Source: Candidatus Campbellbacteria bacterium (GTDB taxonomy: Bacteria; Patescibacteriota; Minisyncoccia; Phycocordibacterales; UBA1006). From it: DNA of 40,917 bases. The position numbers and the translations under genes are program-made. Positions within the stretch are counted from its first letter, which is position 1; the number at the start of each line of letters is the position of its first letter. The notes below the pieces were generated by a model. It did not search any database and was not told where the DNA came from. It worked only from the letters and a program-made list of their open reading frames with translations. Where the stretch lies: contig NZWR01000006.1 in NCBI GenBank assembly GCA_002698305.1, positions 1 to 40,917 on the forward strand, given 5' to 3'. Below, in pieces: positions 1 to 40,917 of the stretch.

Positions 1-34
1 GTGTTTCTGAGATTGTATTTGAGTATCCAGCCAT
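1..34 (-). CDS. 5' end of a hypothetical ORF running off the left edge (MAGYSNTISET...)
   Basis: ATG at 32-34 (minus) lies 6 nt downstream of a TATAAT (41-46, minus). This is the same leaderless geometry seen at about 20 other genes. The frame stays open to the window edge. Confidence 0.25.
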   Translation of the reverse strand, partial: MAGYSNTISET

Positions 35-50
35 AGTTAAATTATACCAG

Positions 51-140
51 ACTAGAACATTTCTCGAACTAAAAATCACCTTACAGAATAAGGTGATTTT
101 CTTGTAGCTGGCAGACTGGGATGACGTTCGAACTTTTTTA
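51..140 (-). repeat. Junction-module copy A (type-2 hairpin)
   Basis: Aligns by eye with modules at 34361-34467 and 32988-33048. It has a CTCGAACT core (63-70), an A5-TCACCTTA/TAAGGTGA-T4 hairpin (71-100), a GCTGGCAGACTGGGATGACGTTCGAAC arm (107-133) and a TTTTTTAAAAGAAAA tail. Confidence 0.7.
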
Positions 141-172
141 AAAGAAAAAGCTACAAATATTTAATTTGTAGC
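140..172 (-). terminator. Intrinsic terminator of the 189..590 ORF
   Basis: GCTACAAA/TTTGTAGC stem (150-157/165-172), followed on the minus strand by a T-rich run. Confidence 0.6.
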
Positions 173-188
173 CAGTTTCTATTAAATT

Positions 189-590
189 TTAAGCAATTGC
201 TTTTAGCGTTGATCCAAAAGTCATTTTATTAATGTTATTTTGACGATAGAAACTACCTTTGAACTCTTCGTTGGTATATAAGCGATAGATTTCTTTTAAC
301 ATTTCTATTGCTTCATCACACAAGGGAACTTTTTCAATTCCTGCGCTTCCATGAATAAATGTATTAAGTGCAATGTTACCAATACCAACCCAACCAGCAT
401 GTCGTGCCTTTGGGTGAACTATTACTATTTCACCAGGTTTCATAGCCATTGGAACATCCCCACTAAAATGTAGTGCCAGACATTCTCCTATGTGTGAATA
501 TGAAACGGTGTGAATGTTACCAAGCAAGGAAATTTTTTTTGATTCAAATGCTTCTTTAATCTTTTTGATATTTTCTATTACGTTGCTCAT
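189..590 (-). CDS. Hypothetical protein (133 aa), cassette cargo downstream of tRNA-Gln
   Basis: Intact ORF bracketed by a consensus promoter (631-659) and a terminator (140-172). No family recognised. Confidence 0.6.
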   Translation of the reverse strand: MSNVIENIKKIKEAFESKKISLLGNIHTVSYSHIGECLALHFSGDVPMAMKPGEIVIVHPKARHAGWVGIGNIALNTFIHGSAGIEKVPLCDEAIEMLKEIYRLYTNEEFKGSFYRQNNINKMTFGSTLKAIA

Positions 591-630
591 TTTAAATGAT
601 TTAAGTTTATATTAAGTTTTTATGAGAATA

Positions 631-659
631 ATTATATCATCTATATAAATAGTTGTCAA
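631..659 (-). promoter_or_regulatory. Sigma70-type promoter TTGACA-17-TATAAT (minus strand)
   Basis: tgtcaa at 654-659 and attata at 631-636 on the plus strand, 17-bp spacer. The -35 box is part of the repeated junction module. Confidence 0.6.
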
Positions 660-731
660 CATATGACTTGTTTAGGATTAGAATCAAAAACACTATATGA
701 AATATAGTGTTTTTAGATAAATGCTGTGTTG
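654..731 (-). repeat. Junction-module copy G, fused to the 3' end of tRNA-Gln
   Basis: High by-eye similarity to 32423-32500 and 35992-36075. Shared parts are TTGAC, GATTAGAAT/GATTCGAAC, the AAAAACACTATATGAAATATAGTGTTTTT hairpin (686-714) and GTGTTGCTG, which runs straight into the tRNA discriminator base. Confidence 0.75.
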
Positions 732-802
732 CTGCTCGACTAGGATTCGAACCTAGATAGTCGGTACCAGAAACCGAAGTCCTACCATTAGACGATCGAG
801 CA
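732..802 (-). tRNA. tRNA-Gln: tRNA-Gln (anticodon CTG)
   Basis: Minus-strand cloverleaf folded by hand. Acceptor TGCTCGA/TCGAGCA with U1-A72, anticodon stem TCGGT/ACCGA, loop TTCTGGT, T-arm CTAGG-TTCGAAT-CCTAG, discriminator G. CCA is not encoded. Confidence 0.85.
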
Positions 803-15106: not shown

Positions 15107-15951
15107 ATAGCCAAAAATTTATTAACTAATAAGAAAAACAAAGTCATTCCGAAAACCGTGTTAACCAAGGGGAATTTTTTGTACATCCAAAATGATTTAT
15201 TTGGATGTAGAATCGTATATACAACCATAGCTAAATAAATCAATCCGAGCAGAAGCGGAATAACACCAAGATGCAGGTATCCAATATATGTTGCAACTCC
15301 GTATGCAATCAAACAGAACCGTAAGGCCCCTTGGTGCCCTAATACTGTTGCGAGGGTTCTTACACCTCCTTTTGTATCAGCCTCAATATCTGGAACAGCT
15401 GAATAGGTCTGCATTGCTGATGCCCAGAGCAAACCACCAAGAACCCCTAACCACGAAATATTGGTGTTACCAGTAGCAAAGAAGCCAACAACCGCAGGTG
15501 AGATATAAATAACTGATGAAAAAATAATATCGAGTGGAGGTTTTGTTTTTGCTCTTATAGGTGTCGCTGAATAGTAAATACTGAATAAAATGAAAATAGT
15601 GAACGCGATAGCAGATTGCCATGGTAAGAAAAAATTTATTAGCGCAGTCAACACTGTCCATATAAGCATATGCCGAGATAAAAATTTATGATGCTTGGGC
15701 TCTATTAATTCTTCGTATTCAATTTTTTTTGGATTATGCTTGTCGGTTTCATAATCATAGATGTCGTTAACTCCATAAATCAATATATTTGCAGGATAGG
15801 TAAAAAACAAACATAGAACCCCAAGAATAATCAACGTTTCAATATCAAGTAACCGAGGGTCACCCGCCGCCACAACCCCAACCAGAAAAGTACCGAGAAC
15901 ATAGATCCAAAATCGTGGACGGGAGATATTAATAAGTCGCTTTACATTCAT
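15103..15951 (-). CDS. UbiA-family prenyltransferase (lycopene-elongase-like by context)
   Basis: NDIYDYETD (NDxxDxxxD) and DIEADTKGG motifs, with 8-9 TM segments. Sits between crtB and the CruF-like gene. Confidence 0.7.
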   Translation of the reverse strand: MNVKRLINISRPRFWIYVLGTFLVGVVAAGDPRLLDIETLIILGVLCLFFTYPANILIYGVNDIYDYETDKHNPKKIEYEELIEPKHHKFLSRHMLIWTVLTALINFFLPWQSAIAFTIFILFSIYYSATPIRAKTKPPLDIIFSSVIYISPAVVGFFATGNTNISWLGVLGGLLWASAMQTYSAVPDIEADTKGGVRTLATVLGHQGALRFCLIAYGVATYIGYLHLGVIPLLLGLIYLAMVVYTILHPNKSFWMYKKFPLVNTVFGMTLFFLLVNKFLAI

Positions 15952-15965
15952 AAAACTAGTATACC

Positions 15966-16928
15966 TTATTCTTGTTTGGACTCTTCATTTTCTTGATATT
16001 TTTGGTTTTTAGAAAAATAGGAACTCAGTAAATAGACAGGTGCAGCAAAAGTAATTAAGAAACTGAACCAAACCTTTTTCCATGTAGGTATCCTAATCCG
16101 ATCAAGAAATGGATTGAAATTTCTCTTCTTTAAAATTCTTATATTTTCACGATAAGTGTAACTTGCTAAAAGTAATGGATAAATATTTTTCCAATGCAAA
16201 AATCTTAAACCATATATTCCACGATCAAATAGCTTTTCATTTTTTTCATAGAAATACCTAAGAGCATTTTTAAGCTCCTTTGTGTGCTGTCTTTGAGCAA
16301 TCATGTTCTCAGTGACACCAAAAACAGCAAGGTCATTCATAGGTAAGTAAATACGATTTCGATCTTGATAATCTTCATCAATATCCCTGAGAAAATTTGC
16401 TAACTGCATTGCCTCACCTAAGGATTGAGCATGAGAGAAAGCCCTTACATTGTTGTATCCAATAATGTGACACATTATATGGCCTACGACAGAAGCTGAG
16501 CCCCACATATACTTTACAAGCTCGGCATATGTTCGTATGCGCATGTCGGAAGAAACATCTTCAATCATTGCTTGAATAAAGTCACCTGCATACTCAAATG
16601 GAATGTTTTTATTAGTAAATAGGAAATAATTTGCTCGTAGTATTGGATGTGTAGCATTAGATGGGCCATTCTTTATGACATGCCCCCACTCATTTTTATA
16701 CTCATAAATATTCGCATGAGTCTGGCCTGGCATTTTTAGATTTGGATTATCAACTAACTCATCAGGATATCTAACAAAAGCATAAAAAATTACTGTCGCT
16801 TTTCTAATATCTTTGGTAAATAGGCGCGTCGCAAAAGCATAGTTAGAGCCAAACGAAAAAAGAAACTGTTTACAGTATTCGTAGTCAGCATCGTATTGTG
16901 TATTAACATACGTGATATACTTAGTCAT
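15966..16928 (-). CDS. crtB: Phytoene synthase (CrtB, squalene/phytoene synthase family)
   Basis: Asp-rich motifs YPDELVD and RDIDEDY, plus an extra C-terminal TM segment. Confidence 0.8.
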   Translation of the reverse strand: MTKYITYVNTQYDADYEYCKQFLFSFGSNYAFATRLFTKDIRKATVIFYAFVRYPDELVDNPNLKMPGQTHANIYEYKNEWGHVIKNGPSNATHPILRANYFLFTNKNIPFEYAGDFIQAMIEDVSSDMRIRTYAELVKYMWGSASVVGHIMCHIIGYNNVRAFSHAQSLGEAMQLANFLRDIDEDYQDRNRIYLPMNDLAVFGVTENMIAQRQHTKELKNALRYFYEKNEKLFDRGIYGLRFLHWKNIYPLLLASYTYRENIRILKKRNFNPFLDRIRIPTWKKVWFSFLITFAAPVYLLSSYFSKNQKYQENEESKQE

Positions 16929-30852: not shown

Positions 30853-31164
30853 CTAATTGCGATGGGGGTTTGTATCATCATCTTTAGGTTTCCCCCACAT
30901 CCATTTAGGTTTTTCACCTTTTTCACGAAGAATCTTGAAAAAAGTTATTGTTAGCAAAATTGCAGGAATAATAAAGGTAAAAATGATTTCTCTTTTCGGT
31001 GATTCTGCATCAATTGTTAATGCAAAAATAATAACAAGACCAATATACACAAGAGTTACAAGCCACCCCTGCCACGTTGCAGGAATCCATCCCCAGCCAT
31101 ACAACTTTCGTCTAAACCAATATTTTTGAGGATTATCACTGAGATATTTTATATATTCTTTCAT
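30853..31164 (-). CDS. Small membrane protein (103 aa)
   Basis: Two or three TM segments. TGGTACAAT lies 6 nt upstream of the ATG. Confidence 0.5.
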   Translation of the reverse strand: MKEYIKYLSDNPQKYWFRRKLYGWGWIPATWQGWLVTLVYIGLVIIFALTIDAESPKREIIFTFIIPAILLTITFFKILREKGEKPKWMWGKPKDDDTNPHRN

Positions 31165-31256: not shown

Positions 31257-32003
31257 ATGAATTTAAAGAAAAAAGGATTTACATTAATAGAATTACTCGT
31301 CGTTATCGCGATTATTGGTATCTTATCAGCCGTTGTTTATACAAGTCTTGGAAGCTCAAGAGTTAAAGCCAAAGACGCGGCAATATTAACTGAAATGAAT
31401 CAAATCGCAACTGCAGTTGAATTAGAAACAAAAGCAACCGGTGATTACACTGATGTGTGTGATTTATTTGACGCAAACAACCCTCTTGAAAACTTAAAAC
31501 AAGGAGTTATTGATAATGGTGGAATCTGGGAAAGTTGTACAGATGATGCATCTTCATATGCAGTAGTGGTAACACTCAATGCACAACAAGCATTTAATAA
31601 TATCTTTAAAGCAGAAACAGTGCATGCACGAGCTTCGACAACAATGTGTCACTTAGTTGGAACACCAGAACAAGAAACTATCAATGTTATAGGAAGTACT
31701 TATGAACATACCCAACATGGTGATACGTATGGTCCATGTCCACCGCTTGCCCCATCTACCACATATGTTGGAGTTCATTCTCAAGATGAATCACTTCTTA
31801 GTGCTGAAGATATTAACAACCTGCGGCAAACAGAGGGAAGTAATTTTATTGAACCTAAGTACTACTGTACTGGGGCATCACCAACAAGTAGTATTGGTAC
31901 AGGGATTTTAAAAGGATATCTATATAAAATACCTGAAGGAGGTTGCGGATCCCCTGCTCCCTCATTCACAGCAGCCCAGTCTGCCTACGCTGAAAGAGAG
32001 TAA
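31257..32003 (+). CDS. Type IV pilin-like protein (prepilin N-terminal cleavage/methylation domain)
   Basis: KKGFTLIELLVVIAIIGILSAV leader and hydrophobic helix, with a Cys-rich variable C-terminus. Confidence 0.85.
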   Translation: MNLKKKGFTLIELLVVIAIIGILSAVVYTSLGSSRVKAKDAAILTEMNQIATAVELETKATGDYTDVCDLFDANNPLENLKQGVIDNGGIWESCTDDASSYAVVVTLNAQQAFNNIFKAETVHARASTTMCHLVGTPEQETINVIGSTYEHTQHGDTYGPCPPLAPSTTYVGVHSQDESLLSAEDINNLRQTEGSNFIEPKYYCTGASPTSSIGTGILKGYLYKIPEGGCGSPAPSFTAAQSAYAERE

Positions 32004-32040: not shown

Positions 32041-32063
32041 ATGTTGTGGAATTATATAACTTA

Positions 32064-32090
32064 TGATGTTCGAACTTTTGTAAAAGAAAA
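32064..32090 (-). repeat. Junction-module half-copy F (only the TGATGTTCGAAC-TTTTGTAAAAGAAAA part)
   Basis: Matches 34441-34467 and 121-147. Lacks the GCTGGCCGTTTGGG part and everything beyond it. Confidence 0.65.
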
Positions 32091-32123: not shown

Positions 32124-32354
32124 TTAGGATAGAAGAATTTCTTCTGAGTGCAATCCACATATGAAAATTTCTCCTTTTGAATCAACTAAGTCGACAAATT
32201 TTTCCCAATAATCTTTAGGTAAGCCAGTTGCATAAAAATCTTTTACCTTTATTTCATGTATTTTGAAAGGGGTAATATATTTAGATGCATATTCTACTTG
32301 TTTTCCTGAATCTTTGAATACAACCTCGTCATCTTCATTAAAAGTATTTTGCAT
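32124..32354 (-). CDS. Hypothetical protein (76 aa), cassette 1
   Basis: Intact ORF between modules F and B. No family recognised. Confidence 0.45.
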   Translation of the reverse strand: MQNTFNEDDEVVFKDSGKQVEYASKYITPFKIHEIKVKDFYATGLPKDYWEKFVDLVDSKGEIFICGLHSEEILLS

Positions 32355-32422
32355 ATAGATTTACATTTAAATTGTTATTTATTTTTATTTGTTATTATAA
32401 TTTAATCATTATAAAATATATA

Positions 32423-32526
32423 AGTCAATATCTAACCTGTCTAGGATTCGAACTAAAAACACTATATGAAATATAGTGTTTTTAAGTAGAAAGTGTGTTG
32501 CTGGCCGTTTGGGATGATGTTCGAAC
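32423..32526 (-). repeat. Junction-module copy B (complete, type-1 hairpin)
   Basis: AGTCAA (-35 complement), CTAGGATTCGAACT, hairpin AAAAACACTATATGAAATATAGTGTTTTT (32455-32483) and GTGTGTTGCTGGCCGTTTGGGATGATGTTCGAAC. Ends at the stop codon of the next ORF. Confidence 0.8.
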
Positions 32527-32973
32527 TTATTTAAATTGAAATTCTCTTAGATAATCAATATATTCTTCTGGGAAATTATGAACTGATGCATGTTTTATGA
32601 TGTTTTCTAAATATTCTTGATTGGGAGATATTTCAATTTCAGGTATTGAAACATATAAATAACAATTGAGGAATTTGTTATTAGGAATTTGAACTTTTAT
32701 TGATTTACGAATGTAAGCACTAGGGTCTTCTATATAATCCAATGTATCTAAGTCCTCTTTTGAAATCTTATACACAATCCCATACACATTTCTCCCTTTA
32801 TTTGACTCTATACTTGCAACACCACCTTCGATATAGGTACCTTTTCTATTAAAACAAATATTATAATTAGAAATAAATCCTTTTGATAAAAATTCTGCTG
32901 TTGAGCATCGTTTTTTCATTCTCTGTTGATCTATATTAGAACCATAAGCAAAGTATAAAATACTATTTTTCAT
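32527..32973 (-). CDS. Gamma-glutamylcyclotransferase / AIG2-like family protein, cassette 2
   Basis: YFAYGSNIDQQRMKKRC N-terminal motif, VYGIVYKI...LDYIED core. TGCTATAAT lies 6 nt upstream of the ATG. Confidence 0.6.
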   Translation of the reverse strand: MKNSILYFAYGSNIDQQRMKKRCSTAEFLSKGFISNYNICFNRKGTYIEGGVASIESNKGRNVYGIVYKISKEDLDTLDYIEDPSAYIRKSIKVQIPNNKFLNCYLYVSIPEIEISPNQEYLENIIKHASVHNFPEEYIDYLREFQFK

Positions 32974-32987
32974 TTTATGATTATAGC

Positions 32988-33048
32988 AAAAATCACTAAC
33001 AAAATAAGGTGGTTTTTAGTTGCTGGCCGTTTGGGATGATGTTCGAAC
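32988..33048 (-). repeat. Junction-module copy C (partial, degenerate type-2 hairpin)
   Basis: AAAAATCAC...AAGGTGGTTTTT followed by AGTTGCTGGCCGTTTGGGATGATGTTCGAAC, which is identical to copies B and D over the arm. Confidence 0.7.
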
Positions 33049-33132
33049 TTATTTATCAAATCAAACCTTCGATTGAAGGTCTAGGTTACCACTATAATTA
33101 ACAAAATATAAATCTCAGGCATTTTATACTAA

Positions 33133-33162
33133 AAAAACCCGCACAAATTAATGCGAGTTTTT
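33133..33162 (-). terminator. Strand-specific terminator of the 33172..34263 ORF
   Basis: Minus-strand RNA CTCGCA/TGCGGG stem (one G-U pair) followed by a U-run. Confidence 0.5.
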
Positions 33163-33171
33163 AATGTAATT

Positions 33172-34263
33172 TTAGTTAGGACAAACCTGTAAACCTAATT
33201 GCTCTGGAATAGAAGGAAAACGTTTTTTGATTTCAGCAACAAGCTGTTTTTCAGCAGGAACATTTCCATATTGATCAATAATCGCAACAAGTGTTACTAC
33301 CTTTTTTTGCTGTATTTCAAACTTCTTCTTTCCTTTTTTAGTTTTAGTTTCTATCTCAACATCTTCAGTTACCACTTTATTAGCACACACAAGGGGGTCA
33401 TTATAAGCATCTAGTGCTGTTTTGAAACTCTTATAATTCACAGAAAAGCCGTTTTCATGAGCAATAATATATGTATTGATATTATTAATTGCGCATAAAC
33501 CAAGTTTTTGCTGAACTGATGCTGGTGCATCTGGTAAATCTAGCTTAACCTTTTCATCATTGTAATAAAAGTCTTCGAGTCCTTGATCAGTATTATTCGG
33601 CCATAAAACCTTTTTTCCGCTCTCTTGAAAATGTTTTCTTTCAAGGTCATAACAATACTTATAAGCATAACCTAGCAATGGATTAGTATAAGTCAAGATT
33701 TTAATTTTTTTCTTGATTGCTATATCTTCATCAGTGACCGCAAAGACACCGCAAAAAAAACTAACGATAGCAAGACTAAATAATACCCAACCTCCAAAAG
33801 TTATAAATCCTTCTGGCGATAAAAATTCAACAGCTAGTATAATCAATCCAACGGTATAAATAAGAAATGCGGGTAAACCATACATCCAATATTTATGAGT
33901 CAAATTAAGTTTATCAGCATTACTTAGATCTGCTTTCACCAAACCGTTATTGTCTATAGACTTAAAAGTGTAAAAAGGAAGCCCTTTTATCATCATTTTA
34001 AGAATATATTCTGGTAAAATTACCAACGGTTTGATACCTTTTTCTTCAAGTTCAGAACGATACTCCTCAATAGCGGTTTTTTCTACAGATAGTTTATTTT
34101 TGAGCATCTCTTTTCTTTCTGGGTTTACAAAATTTGAAAAAATTCCTGAAACTTTCTTTTTATCAAAGACAACAGAATTATCTTCAGCAAGCGTTTGAGC
34201 CATAGAATTTCTTGTATTTAAATACTCTGTTTCTAACTCTTCGGTCCATGTTTTTGTTTTCAT
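33172..34263 (-). CDS. Hypothetical protein with two central TM helices (363 aa), cassette 3
   Basis: Intact ORF with TTGACT-16-CATAAT upstream. Soluble N- and C-terminal domains flank the TM pair. No family recognised. Confidence 0.6.
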   Translation of the reverse strand: MKTKTWTEELETEYLNTRNSMAQTLAEDNSVVFDKKKVSGIFSNFVNPERKEMLKNKLSVEKTAIEEYRSELEEKGIKPLVILPEYILKMMIKGLPFYTFKSIDNNGLVKADLSNADKLNLTHKYWMYGLPAFLIYTVGLIILAVEFLSPEGFITFGGWVLFSLAIVSFFCGVFAVTDEDIAIKKKIKILTYTNPLLGYAYKYCYDLERKHFQESGKKVLWPNNTDQGLEDFYYNDEKVKLDLPDAPASVQQKLGLCAINNINTYIIAHENGFSVNYKSFKTALDAYNDPLVCANKVVTEDVEIETKTKKGKKKFEIQQKKVVTLVAIIDQYGNVPAEKQLVAEIKKRFPSIPEQLGLQVCPN

Positions 34264-34318
34264 AATCGTCGATTTTAGTTTTATTGATTTGATTTCATTA
34301 TGATGGCAAATAAAAAAA

Positions 34319-34467
34319 AGTCAATTAATTATTTAGCGATTTTTCGTTTGATATAGCAAACTAGGATAAAGTTCGAACCAAAAATCACCTTATCCTAGAA
34401 GGTGATTTTTAGATAAATATTTCTTGCTGGCCGTTTGGGATGATGTTCGAACTTTTGCAAAAGAAAA
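34319..34467 (-). repeat. Junction-module copy D (complete, type-2 hairpin)
   Basis: AGTCAA (34319-34324), CTAGGATAAAGTTCGAACC, hairpin AAAAATCACCTT-ATCCTAG-AAGGTGATTTTT (34380-34410), CTTGCTGGCCGTTTGGGATGATGTTCGAAC and TTTTGCAAAAGAAAA. Confidence 0.8.
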
Positions 34468-34493
34468 TCCATCAACTGAATCTTCTTGATGGA
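34468..34493 (-). terminator. Hairpin terminator of the 34501.. ORF
   Basis: TCCATCAA-CTGAATCTTC-TTGATGGA, then a T-rich tract on the minus strand. Confidence 0.6.
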
Positions 34494-34500
34494 TTATTAC

Positions 34501-35097
34501 TTAATTTAAATTATCAAATTTTTTTAATAAGCGATGATTATCTGTAAACGAGGGATTAGAGAAATAATCTTTGCTGTTCAAAAACTGTTGGTCGGTAATA
34601 CAGAACTTTATTCCTGAACTAAAACCTATTCCGAGTTTTTCCATATACCCATCTTCTTCACTGCACACCAACATAGAGTGGCATCTATCAGATGAATGAA
34701 ACCAGCCTAAAAAAATTGGAGGTTTGAAAGACGGGTTCCATAGAATTACGCTGTCCCAAAAATTGTTTTCTATTTGTTTTATAGTTGAAAATGGAATATT
34801 TTCTAATGAGTAGCTTTCAAGAGAATAATTTACTACACATCTATCTAATACACTTCGCACATTAACTTCGTATTCTTCCATGAAATTAGTTTCATATTCG
34901 TTCAAAGGGGATCCAACTAATAGTATTCTTTTCATAAAATTGTTTTTATTTACATAAAGCATAACCTCAAATAATTTTTTAGTAAAATTTTGTATCATAA
35001 AATTATTAAAAATAACTTGTATACAACATTCAAAAAATCGCTTAAAGATGAGGTGGTTTAATCTTTTGTAGGAAATTTTAAATAAAAAATGAGTCAT
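34501..35097 (-). CDS. Hypothetical soluble protein, cassette 4 second gene (start probably internal)
   Basis: The track start at 35097 lies inside the terminator hairpin of the upstream gene. In-frame ATGs at 34998 (TTTAAT 6 nt upstream) or 34935 (MKRILLVGSP) are more plausible. Confidence 0.5.
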   Translation of the reverse strand: MTHFLFKISYKRLNHLIFKRFFECCIQVIFNNFMIQNFTKKLFEVMLYVNKNNFMKRILLVGSPLNEYETNFMEEYEVNVRSVLDRCVVNYSLESYSLENIPFSTIKQIENNFWDSVILWNPSFKPPIFLGWFHSSDRCHSMLVCSEEDGYMEKLGIGFSSGIKFCITDQQFLNSKDYFSNPSFTDNHRLLKKFDNLN

Positions 35098-35110
35098 TTC
35101 TGACTCATTT
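35087..35110 (-). terminator. Hairpin terminator of the 35130..35939 ORF
   Basis: AAATGAGTCA-TTTC-TGACTCATTT, a 10-bp stem followed by a T-run on the minus strand. Confidence 0.65.
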
Positions 35111-35129
35111 AGATTTAAAATTAATAATA

Positions 35130-35939
35130 TTAATCTACAGCGATATCTTCTTTTTTAAACTGAAGGTAGTTAAGGTCTGGAATTTCAATTTCTAATTTTT
35201 TTCTTAATGAAGAAATCCATTGATTCATTGAGTTCTCAGATATCTCTAGGCTTTCAAGCTGATTTTTATTTATTACTAAAAGCACATCTTCAAGCTTTTC
35301 TTGGTCTTGAGCACATCTTTTTTCCCACATTTTTATTTGCTCAAAGTATCTTTTCCTACTCCTTGTAAAACGACCAATTGCTGAATCAATCCCTCTACTC
35401 AACGAAAATAGCAAATCTCTATCGACATTTTCTTTGGGAATAATTTCTGTGACCATTCGTGAATATTCTGCTAAATATTTTAGAAGTGCTTTGTAGTTAA
35501 TTGGCTCCTTACTATTATCAGATTTATCATCATCGCTAGAAACAGATGTTCGAGAATACTCAAGAGCACATGTTAGCGAACAAATAAACATTACAGGTAA
35601 AAAGAATATATCCTTATAGATTTCTTGGTTATTTAAAAATAAGATAACTTCTAGCTGAATAAAGAAAACTAATATTCCCAATATTAAAAAAGCTATATCC
35701 TTTGTCTTTTTTTTTCTTAAAGCTCTCACCGAAAGATCAAAAAAACTTAAAGATAGAAAACCTGCTAACGCAGAGATTATAACTATGCCAACATAAGCTA
35801 ACCATGGATGGGATAAATTCTCAGGATGCGCATATGTGCTTTCTAACAAGTCATATCTCGTGCCTAAGATTAAACTTAAGCCAATTATCGCTGAAATTAG
35901 AAATAGGATTCCTAAAATAAGAAAAATATATTTTTTCAT
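35130..35939 (-). CDS. Hypothetical membrane protein (4 TM, C-terminal coiled-coil-like domain), cassette 4 first gene
   Basis: Intact ORF downstream of module E. No family recognised. Confidence 0.6.
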   Translation of the reverse strand: MKKYIFLILGILFLISAIIGLSLILGTRYDLLESTYAHPENLSHPWLAYVGIVIISALAGFLSLSFFDLSVRALRKKKTKDIAFLILGILVFFIQLEVILFLNNQEIYKDIFFLPVMFICSLTCALEYSRTSVSSDDDKSDNSKEPINYKALLKYLAEYSRMVTEIIPKENVDRDLLFSLSRGIDSAIGRFTRSRKRYFEQIKMWEKRCAQDQEKLEDVLLVINKNQLESLEISENSMNQWISSLRKKLEIEIPDLNYLQFKKEDIAVD

Positions 35940-35991
35940 AATAAATTATTTAAGGTGTTATTTTATTCATTCAATCATTTAAACATTTATT

Positions 35992-36078
35992 AGTCAACAT
36001 ATAACCTGTTTAAGATTCGAACTAAAAACACTATCTGAAATATAGTGTTTTTTTAAGTAAATAGTGTGTTGCTGGCCG
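35992..36078 (-). repeat. Junction-module half-copy E (promoter, hairpin and GTTGCTGGCCG part only)
   Basis: AGTCAACATATAACCTGTTTAAGATTCGAACT, hairpin at 36024-36054, and GTGTGTTGCTGGCCG. Homology to the other copies stops after GGCCG at 36078. Confidence 0.75.
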
Positions 36079-36231
36079 AGTTGAGCTAGAACCGTGGTCG
36101 GTCAAGCCCTGTAAGGTATATTTATTAAGTTTTGAATATAATTTCAGACCCGTCCTGAGCACCTATATATTTCTCAAAAAGTGACAAAAGTGACACAGGA
36201 AAGCATTTTAAAGTTACATCCGTCTGTAATC

Positions 36232-37353
36232 TTATAAAAGCTCAAAAGGTTGATTAATAACCTCTGAATAATACTGTGATTGTTGTTCCAAATATTTTTT
36301 ACTGTCACTAAAGACCTTTGAATGAGCAGAACCAAATTGGTATGCATTAATCATTCTAGAAAATATCAATTGGTCTTCTTTGCTCCTTAGAAAATTTTCT
36401 CCATCCATTCTCAATTTAGGATGAAAAATAATTGCCTTACAAGGTGTAAGCGGTAAGGCAAGAGTTAAGTTTATATTTTTCATATCCCACCACACCGGGA
36501 AGTTCCACCAACCTCGAGAATTCTCAAAAAACAGAACTGGATTATCAGAGATTACAAATTTATTATCTGTTCCAGTAGTATCCAATATAAGAATATTTTT
36601 CTCATGAATATTTTGACTTATTTCACTCGCAATAATTTGTGAAAGTAATCTAGTGATAGATTCTACACTTTTGCCTGTCAGAGTAATTTTCTTACTATAA
36701 CTATTTAATTCCTCTTGTGTTACCTTAAATGAATTATTAATAATGATATTTTGAACAGTTTTTGGGTTAAATTCATGATCATTAACAAAAAGTTCTTTTT
36801 TGAAATCCAAGTTTTTTTCAGTGACTAAGAAAGAAATAAATTTATGTAGATTTTCATAAAAGTATGGAGTTCTTGTGATCTGGTGAGCAATAAAGGTTGC
36901 AATAATTGATGACTCAAGAAAGGTAAAATTTTGTGTTTTTTTAATATCTTGAATATATCGAACAACTCGCGACATTGATTCTTCTAGGTTTCCATAGACT
37001 TGTTTTTCAGCATAATCAGATTTATTTCCCTGTTTATCATCAAAAATATAGAAGTCTGTTTCTTGTGCTGCGTCTACTATTTTTTCGTCTGTAATACTTT
37101 TATTCTCAATAGAGAAGGCATATACAAAACCTAACTTACTTTGATCATCAGAAACACTAAATTTCTTCAGAATGAACTGAGGTATATAATGACCTCGAGC
37201 TTCACCATTATAAGTATTTTTGTAATAAGTTAATCGCCCAAGAATATTCATAATAAAAAAGATGATTCTTGCCTCAAATCTTGTTTTTCCTAATCTGTTT
37301 CTTAAACAAAAGCCAATAAAAGAACCGTGTTGTTTCGATAACCATTTTCTCAT
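36232..37353 (-). CDS. DUF4238-family protein
   Basis: N-terminal HYIPQFILKKFS matches the DUF4238 signature (HYVPQFYLxxF), about 370 aa. TGCTATTAT lies 6 nt upstream of the ATG. Confidence 0.55.
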   Translation of the reverse strand: MRKWLSKQHGSFIGFCLRNRLGKTRFEARIIFFIMNILGRLTYYKNTYNGEARGHYIPQFILKKFSVSDDQSKLGFVYAFSIENKSITDEKIVDAAQETDFYIFDDKQGNKSDYAEKQVYGNLEESMSRVVRYIQDIKKTQNFTFLESSIIATFIAHQITRTPYFYENLHKFISFLVTEKNLDFKKELFVNDHEFNPKTVQNIIINNSFKVTQEELNSYSKKITLTGKSVESITRLLSQIIASEISQNIHEKNILILDTTGTDNKFVISDNPVLFFENSRGWWNFPVWWDMKNINLTLALPLTPCKAIIFHPKLRMDGENFLRSKEDQLIFSRMINAYQFGSAHSKVFSDSKKYLEQQSQYYSEVINQPFELL

Positions 37354-37456
37354 TTATTTATAATAGCATTTTTATACTACTGTCTACCAAATAATGTTAC
37401 CAACAACCAACCCTATACTCGCTTAGCAAACATTCATATTGCGACATAATGTATAT

Positions 37457-38776
37457 ATGAATACAGTAACAAATGCACAAATAGGTTCAGCCCCAGTCAT
37501 TATTCAAAAAGATATCAACTATGTCCTCTATGCTCGTAAGTCTACTGAGAGTGACGAGAAACAAGCTCTCTCGATTGATTCACAAGTAAAAGAGATGAGA
37601 CAAATAGCAGAGCGAGATAATCTGAATATCATAGATATAAGACGTGAATCACATTCAGCAAAAGATTCAGGAAAACGACCAGTGTTTCTTGAAATATTAA
37701 ATGACTTACGATCTGGTAGATATACAGGAATACTCACATGGGCACCTGATAGGTTGAGTCGTAATGCTGGCGACCTTGGTTCATTAGTTGATTTAATGGA
37801 TGAAGGTAAACTCCAAGAAATCAGAACCTATGGTCAAAATTTCAAGAACTCACCAAATGAAAAATTTCTGTTAATGATTCTTTGCTCTCAAGCAAAGCTA
37901 GAGAATGATAACAAGAGCATTAATGTAAAACGAGGATTACGAACCAGAGTTGAAATGGGATTGTGGCCATCAGTAGCTCCTACAGGATATCTGAACCAAA
38001 AAATGATGGATAAGAAAGGAGAAGTAATTATTGATCCAGATCGAGGTCATATCATTAAACAAATATTTGAGAAAGTAGCCTATGAAAAGTGGTCAGGAAG
38101 AAAGATATACAACTGGCTCAAGTTTGATATGAATTTCAAGACAGCTCGTGGAAATAAAAGTCTTTCACTCAGTAACATCTATCTGATACTAGAAAACACC
38201 TTTTACTATGGTGTTTTCCAATACCCTAAAAAGAGTGGTAACTGGTATACAGGAATTCATAAACCCCTCGTTACCAAAGAACTCTATGATCTCGTACAAG
38301 ATCAAGTGAAAAGTAACATCCTAAGAGTTGAAAACAAAGAATTTGCTTTTACAAAACTTATGACCTGCGGATTGTGCGGTTCTGGTATTTCTGCCGACGA
38401 GAAGTTCAAGAAACTCAAAAATGGAGGCGTTAATCGACATGTATATTACGGATGTACAAGAAGTAAGGATAGGAATTGTATGGGTGGATATATTAATGAA
38501 ATTGATCTGATTAAACAATTTCAGAAACTTATTGAACAAGTGAAAATTTCTGAGAAAAGCATGAGGAACAAGATTAAGGAAGAAGTATCACAAATCAAAA
38601 AGTTTAATCAATTGCTACTTGGTATTGAGCAAGACATCAGCGTCAGCTCAATTGATATTCAAAACTATGCGAAGTTCATTTTGAAAGAGGGTTCGATAGA
38701 TGAGAAACGTGAGTTGCTTGGGTGTTTGAATGGAAAGATTGTTTTGAAGGATAAGAAGTTGGGGTTGGTAAAATAA
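37457..38776 (+). CDS. Large serine recombinase
   Basis: Resolvase catalytic domain (YARKSTESD...DRLSRN), a recombinase domain, the zinc ribbon CGLCGS...YYGCTRSKDRNC and a C-terminal coiled coil. ATG at 37457 lies 6 nt after CATAAT; the track start is a TTG at 37439. Confidence 0.85.
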   Translation: MNTVTNAQIGSAPVIIQKDINYVLYARKSTESDEKQALSIDSQVKEMRQIAERDNLNIIDIRRESHSAKDSGKRPVFLEILNDLRSGRYTGILTWAPDRLSRNAGDLGSLVDLMDEGKLQEIRTYGQNFKNSPNEKFLLMILCSQAKLENDNKSINVKRGLRTRVEMGLWPSVAPTGYLNQKMMDKKGEVIIDPDRGHIIKQIFEKVAYEKWSGRKIYNWLKFDMNFKTARGNKSLSLSNIYLILENTFYYGVFQYPKKSGNWYTGIHKPLVTKELYDLVQDQVKSNILRVENKEFAFTKLMTCGLCGSGISADEKFKKLKNGGVNRHVYYGCTRSKDRNCMGGYINEIDLIKQFQKLIEQVKISEKSMRNKIKEEVSQIKKFNQLLLGIEQDISVSSIDIQNYAKFILKEGSIDEKRELLGCLNGKIVLKDKKLGLVK

Positions 38777-38795
38777 AAACCCATAGTGGGTTTTT
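38775..38795. terminator. Bidirectional hairpin
   Basis: AAAAACCCA-TAG-TGGGTTTTT between convergent genes. Confidence 0.6.
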
Positions 38796-39243
38796 ATTTT
38801 AATCTTTGTAGAATTTCCTTCATCTGAGTAATCTCTTCTTTCTGAGCTGAAACAATATCATCACATAGCTGTATTATTTCAGGATCAGTAATCGAGGATT
38901 CCTGACACACGGTAATGGCTCCTGAGTGATGAGGTATCATTGATTTCAAAAACATTTCATTTCCTACAAATAACTGAGTTCGTATAGCAATAAATGCAAA
39001 CACAAATAATGCAGAACTTGCTATATACAAAATAGTATTAAGTTTTTTATTAGGATACATGCTTCTCATAACATAGAGCATGAGGATTATCATTGGAGGA
39101 ACCATCACCAATGCCATATAAAGAGGTCGGGTACTAAAGAAATACGCATCAGTAATACTATCAATCACTACATATGATAGACAGTACATGATGATAAAAT
39201 GTATTCCTACAGTTGTAAGTAATTTTTTATACATAGATTTCAT
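38794..39243 (-). CDS. DUF305-family membrane-anchored protein (copper-associated)
   Basis: MIPHHSGAI motif with three N-terminal TM helices. Adjacent to the multicopper oxidase. Confidence 0.65.
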   Translation of the reverse strand: MKSMYKKLLTTVGIHFIIMYCLSYVVIDSITDAYFFSTRPLYMALVMVPPMIILMLYVMRSMYPNKKLNTILYIASSALFVFAFIAIRTQLFVGNEMFLKSMIPHHSGAITVCQESSITDPEIIQLCDDIVSAQKEEITQMKEILQRLK

Positions 39244-39249
39244 ATAGTA

Positions 39250-40917
39250 TTATTTTACCTTAAATCCAAACATCATGCCTGCATGTAAGTGCTCTGCAAT
39301 ATGACAATGAGTCATCCAAGTTCCAGGATTCGACATTTCGACCAACACATCAATTGTTTGACCTGTCGGTATCAGCGTTGTGTCTTTCCATTGTAAATTT
39401 TTATTTGGCACACCGTCACGTTCGAGCACCACAAATCGCTGTCCATGGAAGTGAATAGGATGTTGCATTGGATGCATTGAATTTGGATCATTGTAGATAC
39501 GAATTTTGACCAAGTCTCCTTGATTAAATGACCAATCAATATTCATATTCTTTTCTCCTGTCGCTTGATCAATAATTTGCCATTCTATGTTTTGATCGTT
39601 AGACATTTGATTCATCATTGCCATATCATCTTCCCATTCAATCCCATCATTTTGATGATCTTGTGGTTTTTTATTATTAAGGTAAGGCTCACAGCCAGCC
39701 ATGTTCGGCATCATCTGGCAATGTTCAATAGCTTGATCTTTTGTCATTTCCATTCCCATTAAGGTAATTTTTTGAGAATCCATCATCATTGATCCGTGAT
39801 CCATGTTTTGCATATTGTCTCCCGTCATCATACCTTGCATCCCTCCTTTCATTTCAATGTTAAAACGGAGAGATTTGTCGGGTTTCTTTGATAAAAAGTT
39901 GTTGATGTTATCAAGAACAATTTTATAGTCATTACTATTATCTCGCAATTGATTGAAAGTGCTTATTGAAGAATCTTTTTCTGATTCAGTTACTATAACT
40001 TCACCGATTTTTTGACCTCGGTGATTAATAGCGAAGGTACCAGCTTGGGGGTACAACGTTTCTATAACATATCGTTCCGCAGGTGCAATAACAACATTGT
40101 CGATGAATTCTTCTTTTTGGATTCGCCCAACGTCCCCACCAACATGCTTAATTTTTGATCCCTTAAATTCAAGGTCAAAAACACGCGTGTTGGCTACATT
40201 GGTCAAAAAGAAACGATTAAGCTGTCCTTTTTCTACTGTCACCTTGAAATCTTTTTTGTCATTAATGAGCAAGGTATCTCCAAATCGACCCATCAAGGTA
40301 TGAGTGACTTTCTCACTATCAAATTCTTCTTGTTCAAGGAAGTCATCAAAAATAAGATACTCTTCTTGATTTGCTTCACTCCAATATCCTAACTCTCCAT
40401 CTACAATAATGTTTCCATAGAGGCCTAGTTCTTGAGTATAATCCTCGCGTATATGAGGATGGTACCAGTACACACCTTCATCTGGAAACGTCAGAGTGTA
40501 CGAAAATGTTTCTCCTGGTTTAATTGGCTCTTGGGTAATATCAGGAACTCCGTCAAATTTATTATCAAGGCGTAGCCCATGTGAATGAAGGGTGGTATCA
40601 ACGTCAATACTGTTTTTCAGATTCACGGTAACTGACGCACCTTTTTGCACCTTAATAACAGGTCCTGGTATCTGACCATTATAGGCAAGTCGCTTTATCA
40701 TACGACCTCCGACCTCTTGTTTTACGATGCTTGCCTCTAGGTCGAACGTATCTCCGTCTGATAGGTTAATAATAGAACTTGACTCTAGCGTCTTATAGGT
40801 ATCAATGTCATCAATATACGACAATGATTGATTTTGAACTTCTTTAACAGATGTATTATTGTTATTAAAAATAATCAAAACAATAACACCAAGTATTAAA
40901 ATTCCTATAAGGATTAT
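39250..40917 (-). CDS. Multicopper oxidase with a Met-rich insert (CopA/CueO-like), 5' end outside the window
   Basis: Copper-ligand motifs HSHG, WYHPH, HPIHFHG and HCHIAEHLHAGM. The Met/His-rich segment is MKGGMQGMMTGDNMQNMDHGSMMMD. The frame stays open upstream of the track TTG start and encodes a signal-like IILIGILILGVIV. Confidence 0.8.
   Translation of the reverse strand: MILIGILILGVIVLIIFNNNNTSVKEVQNQSLSYIDDIDTYKTLESSSIINLSDGDTFDLEASIVKQEVGGRMIKRLAYNGQIPGPVIKVQKGASVTVNLKNSIDVDTTLHSHGLRLDNKFDGVPDITQEPIKPGETFSYTLTFPDEGVYWYHPHIREDYTQELGLYGNIIVDGELGYWSEANQEEYLIFDDFLEQEEFDSEKVTHTLMGRFGDTLLINDKKDFKVTVEKGQLNRFFLTNVANTRVFDLEFKGSKIKHVGGDVGRIQKEEFIDNVVIAPAERYVIETLYPQAGTFAINHRGQKIGEVIVTESEKDSSISTFNQLRDNSNDYKIVLDNINNFLSKKPDKSLRFNIEMKGGMQGMMTGDNMQNMDHGSMMMDSQKITLMGMEMTKDQAIEHCQMMPNMAGCEPYLNNKKPQDHQNDGIEWEDDMAMMNQMSNDQNIEWQIIDQATGEKNMNIDWSFNQGDLVKIRIYNDPNSMHPMQHPIHFHGQRFVVLERDGVPNKNLQWKDTTLIPTGQTIDVLVEMSNPGTWMTHCHIAEHLHAGMMFGFKVK

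Follow-up and report, generated by a model that had tools for sequence, protein, structure and literature searches.

What is the short repeat that separates a row of small genes beside a recombinase gene in this DNA, and where within it were the genes joined? The window, meaning the whole stretch of 40,917 nucleotides analysed here, comes from a marine member of the Patescibacteria (CPR), a host with a tiny body and a tiny genome that has two tRNA-Gln genes. Patescibacteria possess few recognised mobile elements, and the gain and swapping of accessory genes in their tiny genomes are poorly understood. The first-pass annotation of the window had described a head-to-tail cassette array, bounded by a site-specific recombination site and adjoined by a recombinase, and this description was supported by our analysis. 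The exchange point had to be moved from 32508-32513 to 32502-32503, and both of the supposed half copies of the repeat (E and F) were read anew. We consider it probable that the repeats are the joints of gene-cassette arrays anchored at tRNA-Gln, with strand exchange at a CA dinucleotide, and that copy E is the attR of an island and copy F a truncated arm. All motifs are written on the minus strand, which is the strand of all array genes.

The repeat is far more frequent in the window than expected by chance. The sequence GCTGGCCG was found at 32500, 33022, 34426 and 36071 (expectation 0.2), and ATGATGTTCGAAC occurred exactly at 32063, 32514, 33036 and 34440. Copies B, C and D contain both parts in the form GCTGGCCG-TTTGGG-ATGATGTTCGAAC, and their coordinates in the first-pass annotation were all correct. 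The same applied to copy E, which retains ...GTTGCTGGCCG and diverges from 36079, and to copy F at the distal end, which starts at 32063. The 8-bp palindrome GTTCGAAC was detected six times in the window against 0.35 expected. Two TTCGAAC cores had been ascribed to every full module; the second core, at a distance of about 73 bp, was present in B (32447-32453) and D (34371-34378) but is absent from C. A sixth module, missing from the earlier description, was identified at 60-135, downstream of an intact tRNA-Gln(CUG) gene. The 3' flank of this tRNA gene was 80-84% identical to the E and B modules, and the 5' module at 35940-36070 displayed 80% identity to the stretch following the tRNA gene (600-734). 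On the minus strand the modules are arranged as AAAA-GTTCGAACATCATCCCAAACGGCCAGC-spacer-hairpin-(GTTCGAATCC...)-promoter-gene. Small-cassette arrays are headed by both tRNA-Gln genes of this genome, one array per gene. The features are collected in Table 1.

Table 1. Features of the window, with the predicted exchange dinucleotide of each joint as read on the plus strand (TG)
Feature	Positions	Strand	Predicted exchange TG (+)	Remarks
Second array	1..730	-		5' module 600-730; cassette gene 189-590; mimic arm A; start of the next cassette, running off the window
Mimic arm A	107..139	-	109-110	GTTCGAACGTCATCCCAGTCTGCCAGC; diverged full joint at 107-133
tRNA-Gln(CUG), head of the second array	731..802	-	733-734	Intact; 3' end GGTTCGAATCCTAGTCGAGCAGC, followed by a module of the same kind
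Type IV pilin-like gene	31257..32003	+		Inverted relative to the array; no arm of its own, own terminator; abuts copy F
Copy F, truncated mimic arm	32063..32090	-		28 bases TTTTCTTTTACAAAAGTTCGAACATCAT, 100% identical to arms elsewhere; then a break, CCCAnnCnGCCAGC missing
Cassette genes	32124..35939	-		35130-35939 (269 aa, membrane); 34501-35097 (probable start 34935); 33172-34263 (363 aa, membrane)
Further cassette genes	32124..35939	-		32527-32973 (AIG2/GGACT-like); 32124-32354 (76 aa)
Mimic arm B	32500..32532	-	32502-32503	33 bp including the A-tract; AAATAA-GTTCGAACATCATCCCAAACGGCCAGC; TTTGGG at 32508-32513
Mimic arm C	33022..33054	-	33024-33025	Closes the cassette with gene 33172-34263; next module without second TTCGAA core
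Mimic arm D	34426..34458	-	34428-34429	Closes the two-gene cassette 34501-35939
5' module of the first cassette past E	35940..36070	-		Spacer, terminator hairpin (~36024-36052), tRNA-like second core (36016-36022), promoter-like stretch
E arm and conserved neighbourhood	36071..36219	-	36073-36074	Arm GGTTCTAGCTCAACTCGGCCAGC at 36071-36093; kept in L039, L041, L042, L046, L048 and L050
Recombinase island, part within the window	36073..40917	-		DUF4238 (36232-37353), recombinase, DUF305 (38794-39243), multicopper oxidase (39250-40878)
Large serine recombinase	37439..38776	+		Resolvase, Recombinase and Zn_ribbon_recom domains; likely start ATG 37457 (439 aa); antisense to the array

A scan for such joints in one representative genome per species and in metagenome contigs yielded 38 loci. 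The organisms of the named loci all belonged to the CPR/Patescibacteria, and comprised Paceibacterota, Saccharibacteria, an unclassified 'bacterium' and two contigs binned as Crocinitomicaceae. A Bacteroidetes immunity-gene array with a tyrosine recombinase had been among the candidates for this locus and was dropped, since all related loci were from CPR and the recombinase is of the serine type. In the roughly 0.4 Mb of fetched sequence, 115 arm copies were detected at no more than 6 mismatches, and every copy on these Patescibacteria contigs was located downstream of a tRNA-Gln gene or in an array displaced from one. No match to the arm was found in a scan of viral contigs. All 18 tRNA genes in the fetched loci were tRNA-Gln; those accompanying the arrays were located upstream of the arms in the same orientation, and the tRNA-Gln was left intact at the heads of arrays and islands. 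The arms themselves were co-oriented in 38 of 39 sequences.

Comparison of 96 distinct contexts indicated a conserved span from -5 to +28 that stops abruptly, with the 33-bp consensus AnAAAA-GTTCGAACATCATCCCAnnCnGCCAGC-A, in which positions 18, 19 and 21 were the most variable. Aligned to the tRNA (GGTTCGAAT-----CCTAGTCTGGCAGC), the motif (AGTTCGAACATCATCCCAGTCTGCCAGC) corresponds to the T-loop and acceptor strand of tRNA-Gln with five extra bp, placed after GTTCGAA, and one G to C change; it is referred to below as the mimic arm. The repeat is not a true displaced tRNA fragment, but a conserved variant with the 5-bp insert and GCCAGC in place of GGCAGC, the same across phyla. The right side of the joints was not conserved: an A-rich spacer, which varies in length, leads into a cassette-specific terminator hairpin. 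Nothing common was found right of CAGC(A), and no conserved half-site was present there. A joint can accordingly be described as a left arm similar to the tRNA-Gln 3' end, an invariant GC-CA-GC and an unconstrained right side. Three types of left arm were distinguished, namely the tRNA itself (GGTTCGAATCCTAGTCTGGCAGC), the 33-bp mimic arm (A, B, C and D) and the E arm (GGTTCTAGCTCAnnTCnGCCAGC).

The crossover had been placed in TTTGGG (CCCAAA, positions 14-19 of the arm). This stretch includes two of the three most variable positions (18 and 19), which could not be tolerated in an overlap region, and TTTGGG is therefore not the overlap region. Pairwise comparisons also located the break in identity elsewhere. 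L013 and L019 were 100% identical over 6.8 kb, ending at GCCAGC(A). L027 and L042 displayed 99.93% identity over 4059 nt up to the CAGC of the arm, where an island follows in L042 only, and the flank after the island differs from that of L027. L022 and L035 were 90-97% identical upstream and diverged 2 nt past the tRNA end. Identity thus broke just past GCCAGC or CAGC in the elements compared, in agreement with the earlier expectation of defined rather than random breakpoints. The island ends were hybrid sites with a common short core. Each arm retains its own base immediately before CA, G on the tRNA side (GGCAGC) and C on the arm side (GCCAGC), and the exchange therefore occurs to the right of that base; the G on the tRNA side keeps the acceptor stem paired. 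Taken together, these comparisons place strand exchange within CAGC and not within TTTGGG.

An attP was rebuilt for three loci (L046, L048 and L050) by joining the E arm of the island, CA and P', the sequence after the tRNA. The best dyad centre of the rebuilt attP (CTAGCTCAA...TTG[A/T]GCTAG) was CA in all three loci, and the dyad scores of 12, 12 and 14 complementary positions out of 20 were reached by 11, 17 and 0 of 20000 shuffles. Based on this dyad symmetry and on the geometry of LI integrase, we infer that the exchanged dinucleotide would be CA and not the neighbouring AG or GC. The predicted catalyst, a large serine recombinase, would exchange strands at the CA of GC-CA-GC. Sites of large serine recombinases are normally two-armed and are used as attP x attB pairs. 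A symmetry search for a second arm, applied to the mimic-arm joints and to the attP-like site of elements with a 494-aa recombinase, gave a weak signal (10 of 24 positions, the best score being tied with another centre). Counted from CA as the centre, the mimic arm has GTTCGAAC at bp 16-23 and the tRNA has GTTCGAAT at bp 11-18. In LI integrase, the motif of the zinc-ribbon domain is shifted by 5 bp between the attP and attB half-sites, 16-24 versus 11-19 (Rutherford et al., PMC3783163). However, an attP/attB-type reading of the 5-bp insert is not the whole story, because islands with the 439-aa recombinase were found at both the tRNA and the mimic arms.

The recombinase held to adjoin the array is indeed nearby, but the gene next to E encodes a DUF4238 protein and the large serine recombinase is located beyond it (Table 1). 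It matched PF00239, PF07508 and PF13408 and contains the catalytic-serine motif YARKST in the frame read from 37457 onwards. More than 8000 relatives of about 440 aa were detected at E <= 1e-20, the best 120 being approximately 70-95% identical. The sequence to the left of the CAGC of E was conserved as TACAGGGCTTGACCGACCAC GGTTCTAGCTCAnnTCnGCCAGC in both close (L039, L041, L042) and distant (L046, L048) relatives, and the E arm was present in seven loci, the window included. Therefore, E is not half of a module, as had been proposed, but a distinct arm conserved in its own right, which appears to form the right end of the recombinase's own island. The flank of E had also been considered as a decayed tRNA-Gln; local alignment was no better than that of shuffled sequences (56-486 of 500 scored at least as well), and this candidate was replaced by the conserved E arm.

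Related islands revealed both ends of the element. L046 and L048 are arranged as tRNA-Gln(CUG), cargo, recombinase (antisense), cargo and E arm; one of the two carries restriction-modification and Thoeris-like genes as cargo, the other copper-resistance genes. The layout of tRNA-Gln, island and E arm was predicted for the window beforehand and was seen in L050, which is 96.8% identical to the window at 37396-40917 and reaches past its right edge. The island of L050 begins with tRNA-Gln(UUG)|CAGC|CAGGTTGTGCTAGC and ends with E arm|CAGC. Its gene order is metal repressor, copper ATPase, multicopper oxidase, DUF305, recombinase and E arm, and it extends about 5 kb further than the part within the window, up to tRNA-Gln(UUG). 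On these sequence comparisons, copy E is assigned as the putative attR, or right end, of a copper-resistance island, about 10 kb long, that belongs to the 439-aa large serine recombinase. Insertion of the island between tRNA-Gln(UUG) and the pre-existing array following it would account for the resemblance of the sequence right of the CAGC of E to the stretch after tRNA-Gln(CUG).

Mimic-arm joints, in L025, L041 and L042, also harboured islands of the 439-aa recombinase, and the two joints of the L041 island together rebuild the joint of L027. Given this occurrence, and the lack of conservation in the right half of every target, the mimic arm may represent a portable copy of the tRNA-Gln target.

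Copy F is a different case. Its identity to the other arms ends at ATCAT. Among the 115 arms, five left-only matches were detected, comprising a 1-nt deletion, a cut at a contig end, a chance match in coding sequence, a degenerate variant and F; F is thus the only truly truncated arm. Elsewhere, arrays end with full arms, as in L008 (the syntenic position), L013 and L027. The window array was identical in more than 15 marine contigs, and variants of copy F, sought in all contigs retrieved, were not found, so the truncation is fixed in the sampled population. One contig of run X7, from a related population, lacks the pilin gene and F; there the gene at 30853-31164 is separated by 57 nt from a D-like module, an observation at the level of the contig only. 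The joints from public runs came from short contigs ending at the repeat and were mostly split alignments of the repeat; of these only the X7 contig was used, and cautiously. The same 103-aa gene (30853-31164) is an arm-flanked cassette in L004 and L029. F most likely arose by a single truncation, in which the inner 14 bp of a mimic arm were removed by one isolated rearrangement or deletion beside the inverted pilin gene. The proposal that E and F are complementary recombination halves is contradicted by these observations, the uniqueness of F matching the simple deletion that had been named as its refutation.

A total of 66 distinct units between arms were detected (median length 610 nt), nearly all of them containing a single forward ORF whose end is no more than a few tens of bases from the following arm; about seven contained an inverted gene instead. 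The A-tract of the arm (TA[T/A]AAAA) often includes TAA, and the stop codon of the cassette is often located there. Type IV pilin-like proteins were encoded by about 20 units, and the other cargo included ASCH, GNAT acetyltransferase, CutA1, YafQ toxin, ADP-ribosyltransferase, NUDIX, glyoxalase and NERD proteins, as well as the AIG2/GGACT-like protein of the window. PADLOC returned no matches for the cassette proteins of the window. Copies B, C and D are read as mimic arms that close single-gene cassettes; such a unit probably begins with a terminator hairpin and a promoter, followed by one gene and the closing arm.

The gain of these single-gene cassettes of about 0.6 kb may be explained by integron-like capture or by accretion of larger elements followed by decay. 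The former is put forward tentatively. A large serine recombinase would capture genes in CPR in a manner analogous to an integron, with the tRNA-Gln end or the E arm as the attI-like insertion site, the 33-bp mimic arm with its five additional bp as the attC-like cassette site, and the recombinase island as a mobile platform. Cassettes would be added singly at the tRNA-like arms, by re-insertion of circles at the head, and the head site would be regenerated at each insertion, since only the left arm is specific. The uniformity of the 66 units, mostly with one ORF and often with the stop codon in the A-tract, is consistent with such capture, and the GNAT, glyoxalase, YafQ, NUDIX, ASCH, ADP-ribosyltransferase and pilin genes are typical integron cargo. 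The recombinase gene is divergent from the array, as is intI. Furthermore, L035 differed from L022 and L032 mostly beside the tRNA, the distal cassettes being common to them, and the differences were gains and losses of whole cassettes. Only two or three recombinase remnants were found in about 115 joints, for which the decay of large elements alone seems too clean. However, neither circles nor cassette-level empty sites were seen in the public runs, whose short contigs break at the repeat, and the window array was stable across the marine contigs. Moreover, the cassettes have no second arm, which large serine recombinases normally need, and islands insert at both arm types.

Pure accretion and decay is a comparably tentative explanation of the arrays. 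According to this explanation, the mimic arms are the right ends of once-complete recombinase elements that had inserted at a tRNA-like arm and were later reduced to one cargo gene. Such elements do exist. A second family of 3-7 kb, encoding a 494-501-aa recombinase and rolling-circle or CRESS-like Rep genes, was identified in L013, L025 and L030, where the elements are located between tRNA-Gln(UUG) and a mimic arm; the last codons of this recombinase (CPELLPD) are encoded across the tRNA joint. In L005, a mimic arm is followed by the left end of an element and 29 C-terminal recombinase codons, indicating a decayed element, and IS elements and other debris were present in the arrays of L022 and L025. 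However, decay explains neither the uniform units of terminator, promoter, gene and arm nor the 5' modules common to unrelated cassettes and different genomes, and remnants were very scarce.

It is very unlikely that the 33-bp motif is instead an RNA or DNA signal of the 3'-UTR, acting in tRNA-like processing, stability or termination, and not a recombination site. The position of the motif between stop codon and terminator hairpin, and its resemblance to a T-loop plus acceptor end, would suit such a signal, but the folding of the arm alone was no better than that of shuffled sequences (z = 0.15 and -2.1), it had no match in Rfam, and no conserved pairing partner was found upstream in the 96 contexts. 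It was rejected as a structured or known RNA on the first two of these grounds. In addition, the island ends and the identity breaks coincide with the CAGC of the motif, which occurred only in arrays tied to tRNA-Gln.

The original model, in which units bounded by CGGCC... and ...ATCAT are exchanged within the 6 bp TTTGGG/CCCAAA and E and F are the attI-like and terminal halves, is highly improbable: it suits the window alone, where E lacks everything left of CGGCC and F everything right of ATCAT, but CCCAnn includes two of the three most variable positions of the arm, the breaks and island ends are 5-10 bp away at CAGC, the flank of E is a conserved arm of its own, F is unique among the 115 arms and array ends elsewhere have full arms, and arm A reads CTGCCAGC against CGAGCAGC in the tRNA of its array, contrary to the prediction of that model.

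The arrays share properties with several known systems. To our knowledge, tRNA genes are unusual targets for serine integrases. In SCC and the Enterococcus cassette chromosome, Ccr large serine recombinases insert at the 3' end of one housekeeping gene (rlmH for SCC), and composite SCC islands consist of tandem elements split by short direct repeats, with recombinase-less pseudo-SCC units in the same arrays. The arrays described here likewise combine a serine recombinase and copper-resistance cargo with tandem units at the 3' end of a single housekeeping gene, and tandem units marked by the target repeat, some of them without recombinase, were present in the window arrays and in L004, L005, L024, L025, L035 and L039. 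The cargo of SCC includes both copper and arsenic resistance (bioRxiv 10.1101/336396; PMC6222049). The arrays differ from SCC in their target, tRNA-Gln instead of rlmH, and in their mostly single-gene units of about 0.6 kb. Their 33-bp repeat imitates the target but contains a 5-bp insert, and they occur in CPR hosts of several phyla.

The tycheposons of Prochlorococcus insert at tRNA genes, where newcomers push older elements deeper into the island; these islands contain scattered partial tRNAs and degenerate elements, and a minority carries a large serine recombinase (bioRxiv 10.1101/2020.12.28.424599). The arrays described here are likewise located at a tRNA 3' end, with the tRNA intact and with probable tandem accretion. 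Tycheposons differ in that they mostly use tyrosine recombinases and several tRNAs, their repeats are true partial tRNAs, and they do not form regular arrays of single-gene cassettes.

As in integrons, the recombinase is divergent from an array of small co-oriented cassettes, each cassette has a conserved 3' site with exchange at its far edge, and the cargo is similar. However, the system is not an integron, as there is no tyrosine recombinase and no attC fold. The only recombinase is of the serine type, with no tyrosine recombinase of the IntI type, and the gene beside E encodes DUF4238. The arm has no single-strand hairpin like that of attC, and it is the left sequence that is conserved rather than a structure. 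The cassettes apparently have their own promoter and terminator, and a tRNA gene heads the array. The same domain set, and a dyad in attP about a non-palindromic central dinucleotide, are known from the large serine integrases of phages (A118/LI, Bxb1, phiC31), and LI integrase resembles the present system in the 5-bp shift of the outer motif between its two site types (PMC3783163). Unlike in the phage systems, conservation of the target is confined here to its left half, and both spacings are targeted. The tRNA-Gln target, the altered and conserved imitation of it across CPR phyla, the half-site specificity and the single-gene units distinguish these arrays from SCC, tycheposons and integrons alike. 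Our searches of the open literature retrieved no account of either the motif or a CPR serine recombinase acting at tRNA-Gln.

A single short site, the end of tRNA-Gln together with its portable imitation, appears to organise much of the gene flux in several CPR phyla. The cargo comprises toxins, small enzymes, defence systems and copper resistance, together with pilins, which are probably proteins of the surface and of host contact. As the recombinase family is large and its target short and defined, the system can be tested in the laboratory, and may provide a useful serine integrase with a known natural site. If the integron-like reading is true, the recombinase island would be a mobile platform that spreads the capacity for gene capture between genomes.

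The region upstream of the 439-aa large serine recombinase gene is a second variable slot. Direct repeats, with the sequences AGTGACAAAAGTGACAC and AGTTACAAAAGTTACA, are present in it together with a GTTAC palindrome, and in the window the DUF4238 gene stands in place of approximately 50 nt of this region. Among the related loci, other genes occupied the slot in L039, L041 and L042, and it was empty in L050. The islands of this recombinase family (L046, L044, L048 and L050) carried Thoeris-like ThsA/ThsB, restriction-modification plus SNF2/Eco57I-type genes, or copper-resistance operons as cargo. At the head of the L044 island, two tRNA-Gln(UUG) genes were arranged in tandem about 60 nt apart (15853-16055). 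In L050 (2845-2866), 21 nt of the tRNA-Gln 5' end also occurred as an isolated copy, some 175 nt upstream from the genuine gene.

The commonest cassette cargo was type IV pilin-like genes, accounting for about 20 of the 66 units. These genes were often found in tandem and displayed conserved N-termini and diverged bodies. The unit between the arms E and D (in the stretch 34501-35130 of the window) contained two genes that no arm separates; all that lies between them is a hairpin (approximately 35088-35115) and a stretch of degenerate GGTGGTTT. The start of its 198-aa ORF is probably the ATG at 34935. In the related loci L011 and L012, the syntenic position lacked a homologue of the second array's first cassette gene (189-590). 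Two contigs binned as Crocinitomicaceae (Bacteroidota; L007 and L010, JBLIKX01) encoded a pilin and an FtsX protein homologous to the window's gene and also contained the CPR motif; they are probably mis-binned CPR contigs.

Coordinates of arrays, tRNA-like pieces, the recombinase upstream region and pilin-like genes
Feature	Window	Related loci	Remarks
Second cassette array	1-802		Headed by an intact tRNA-Gln(CUG); continues past the window's left edge
Second tRNA-Gln-like piece	32440-32453, 34364-34378, 36009-36022, 61-69
Recombinase upstream region	36180-37440	L050 11788-12045; L041 9030-9130
Type IV pilin-like genes	31257-32003	L004, L018, L028, L029, L039

Many modules, in many loci, contained a second tRNA-Gln-like piece, such as GGTTCGAGAATCCTAGTTTGGTATAAT, 3' of the terminator hairpin. 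At the position of the tRNA's ...TGGCAGC this piece displayed TGGTATAAT, which resembles an extended -10 promoter element. After some CAGC joints an insert of about 150 nt was identified (L035 5090-5245, and also L017, L022, L032, L014, L020 and L003). In this insert a hairpin precedes two copies of the tRNA-Gln 3' end, the first inverted and the second direct with a terminal CAGC, and some 60 nt lie between the two copies. No Rfam family matched the insert, which is possibly a miniature mobile element.

Elements whose recombinase is 494-501 aa long (L013 1-1526, L025 and L030) encoded replication genes of either the rolling-circle (PF23343) or the CRESS-like type (Viral_Rep plus helicase). 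The final codons and stop of their recombinase genes (..CPELLPD*) span the tRNA-Gln(UUG) joint, and therefore the C-terminus of the recombinase would change on excision.
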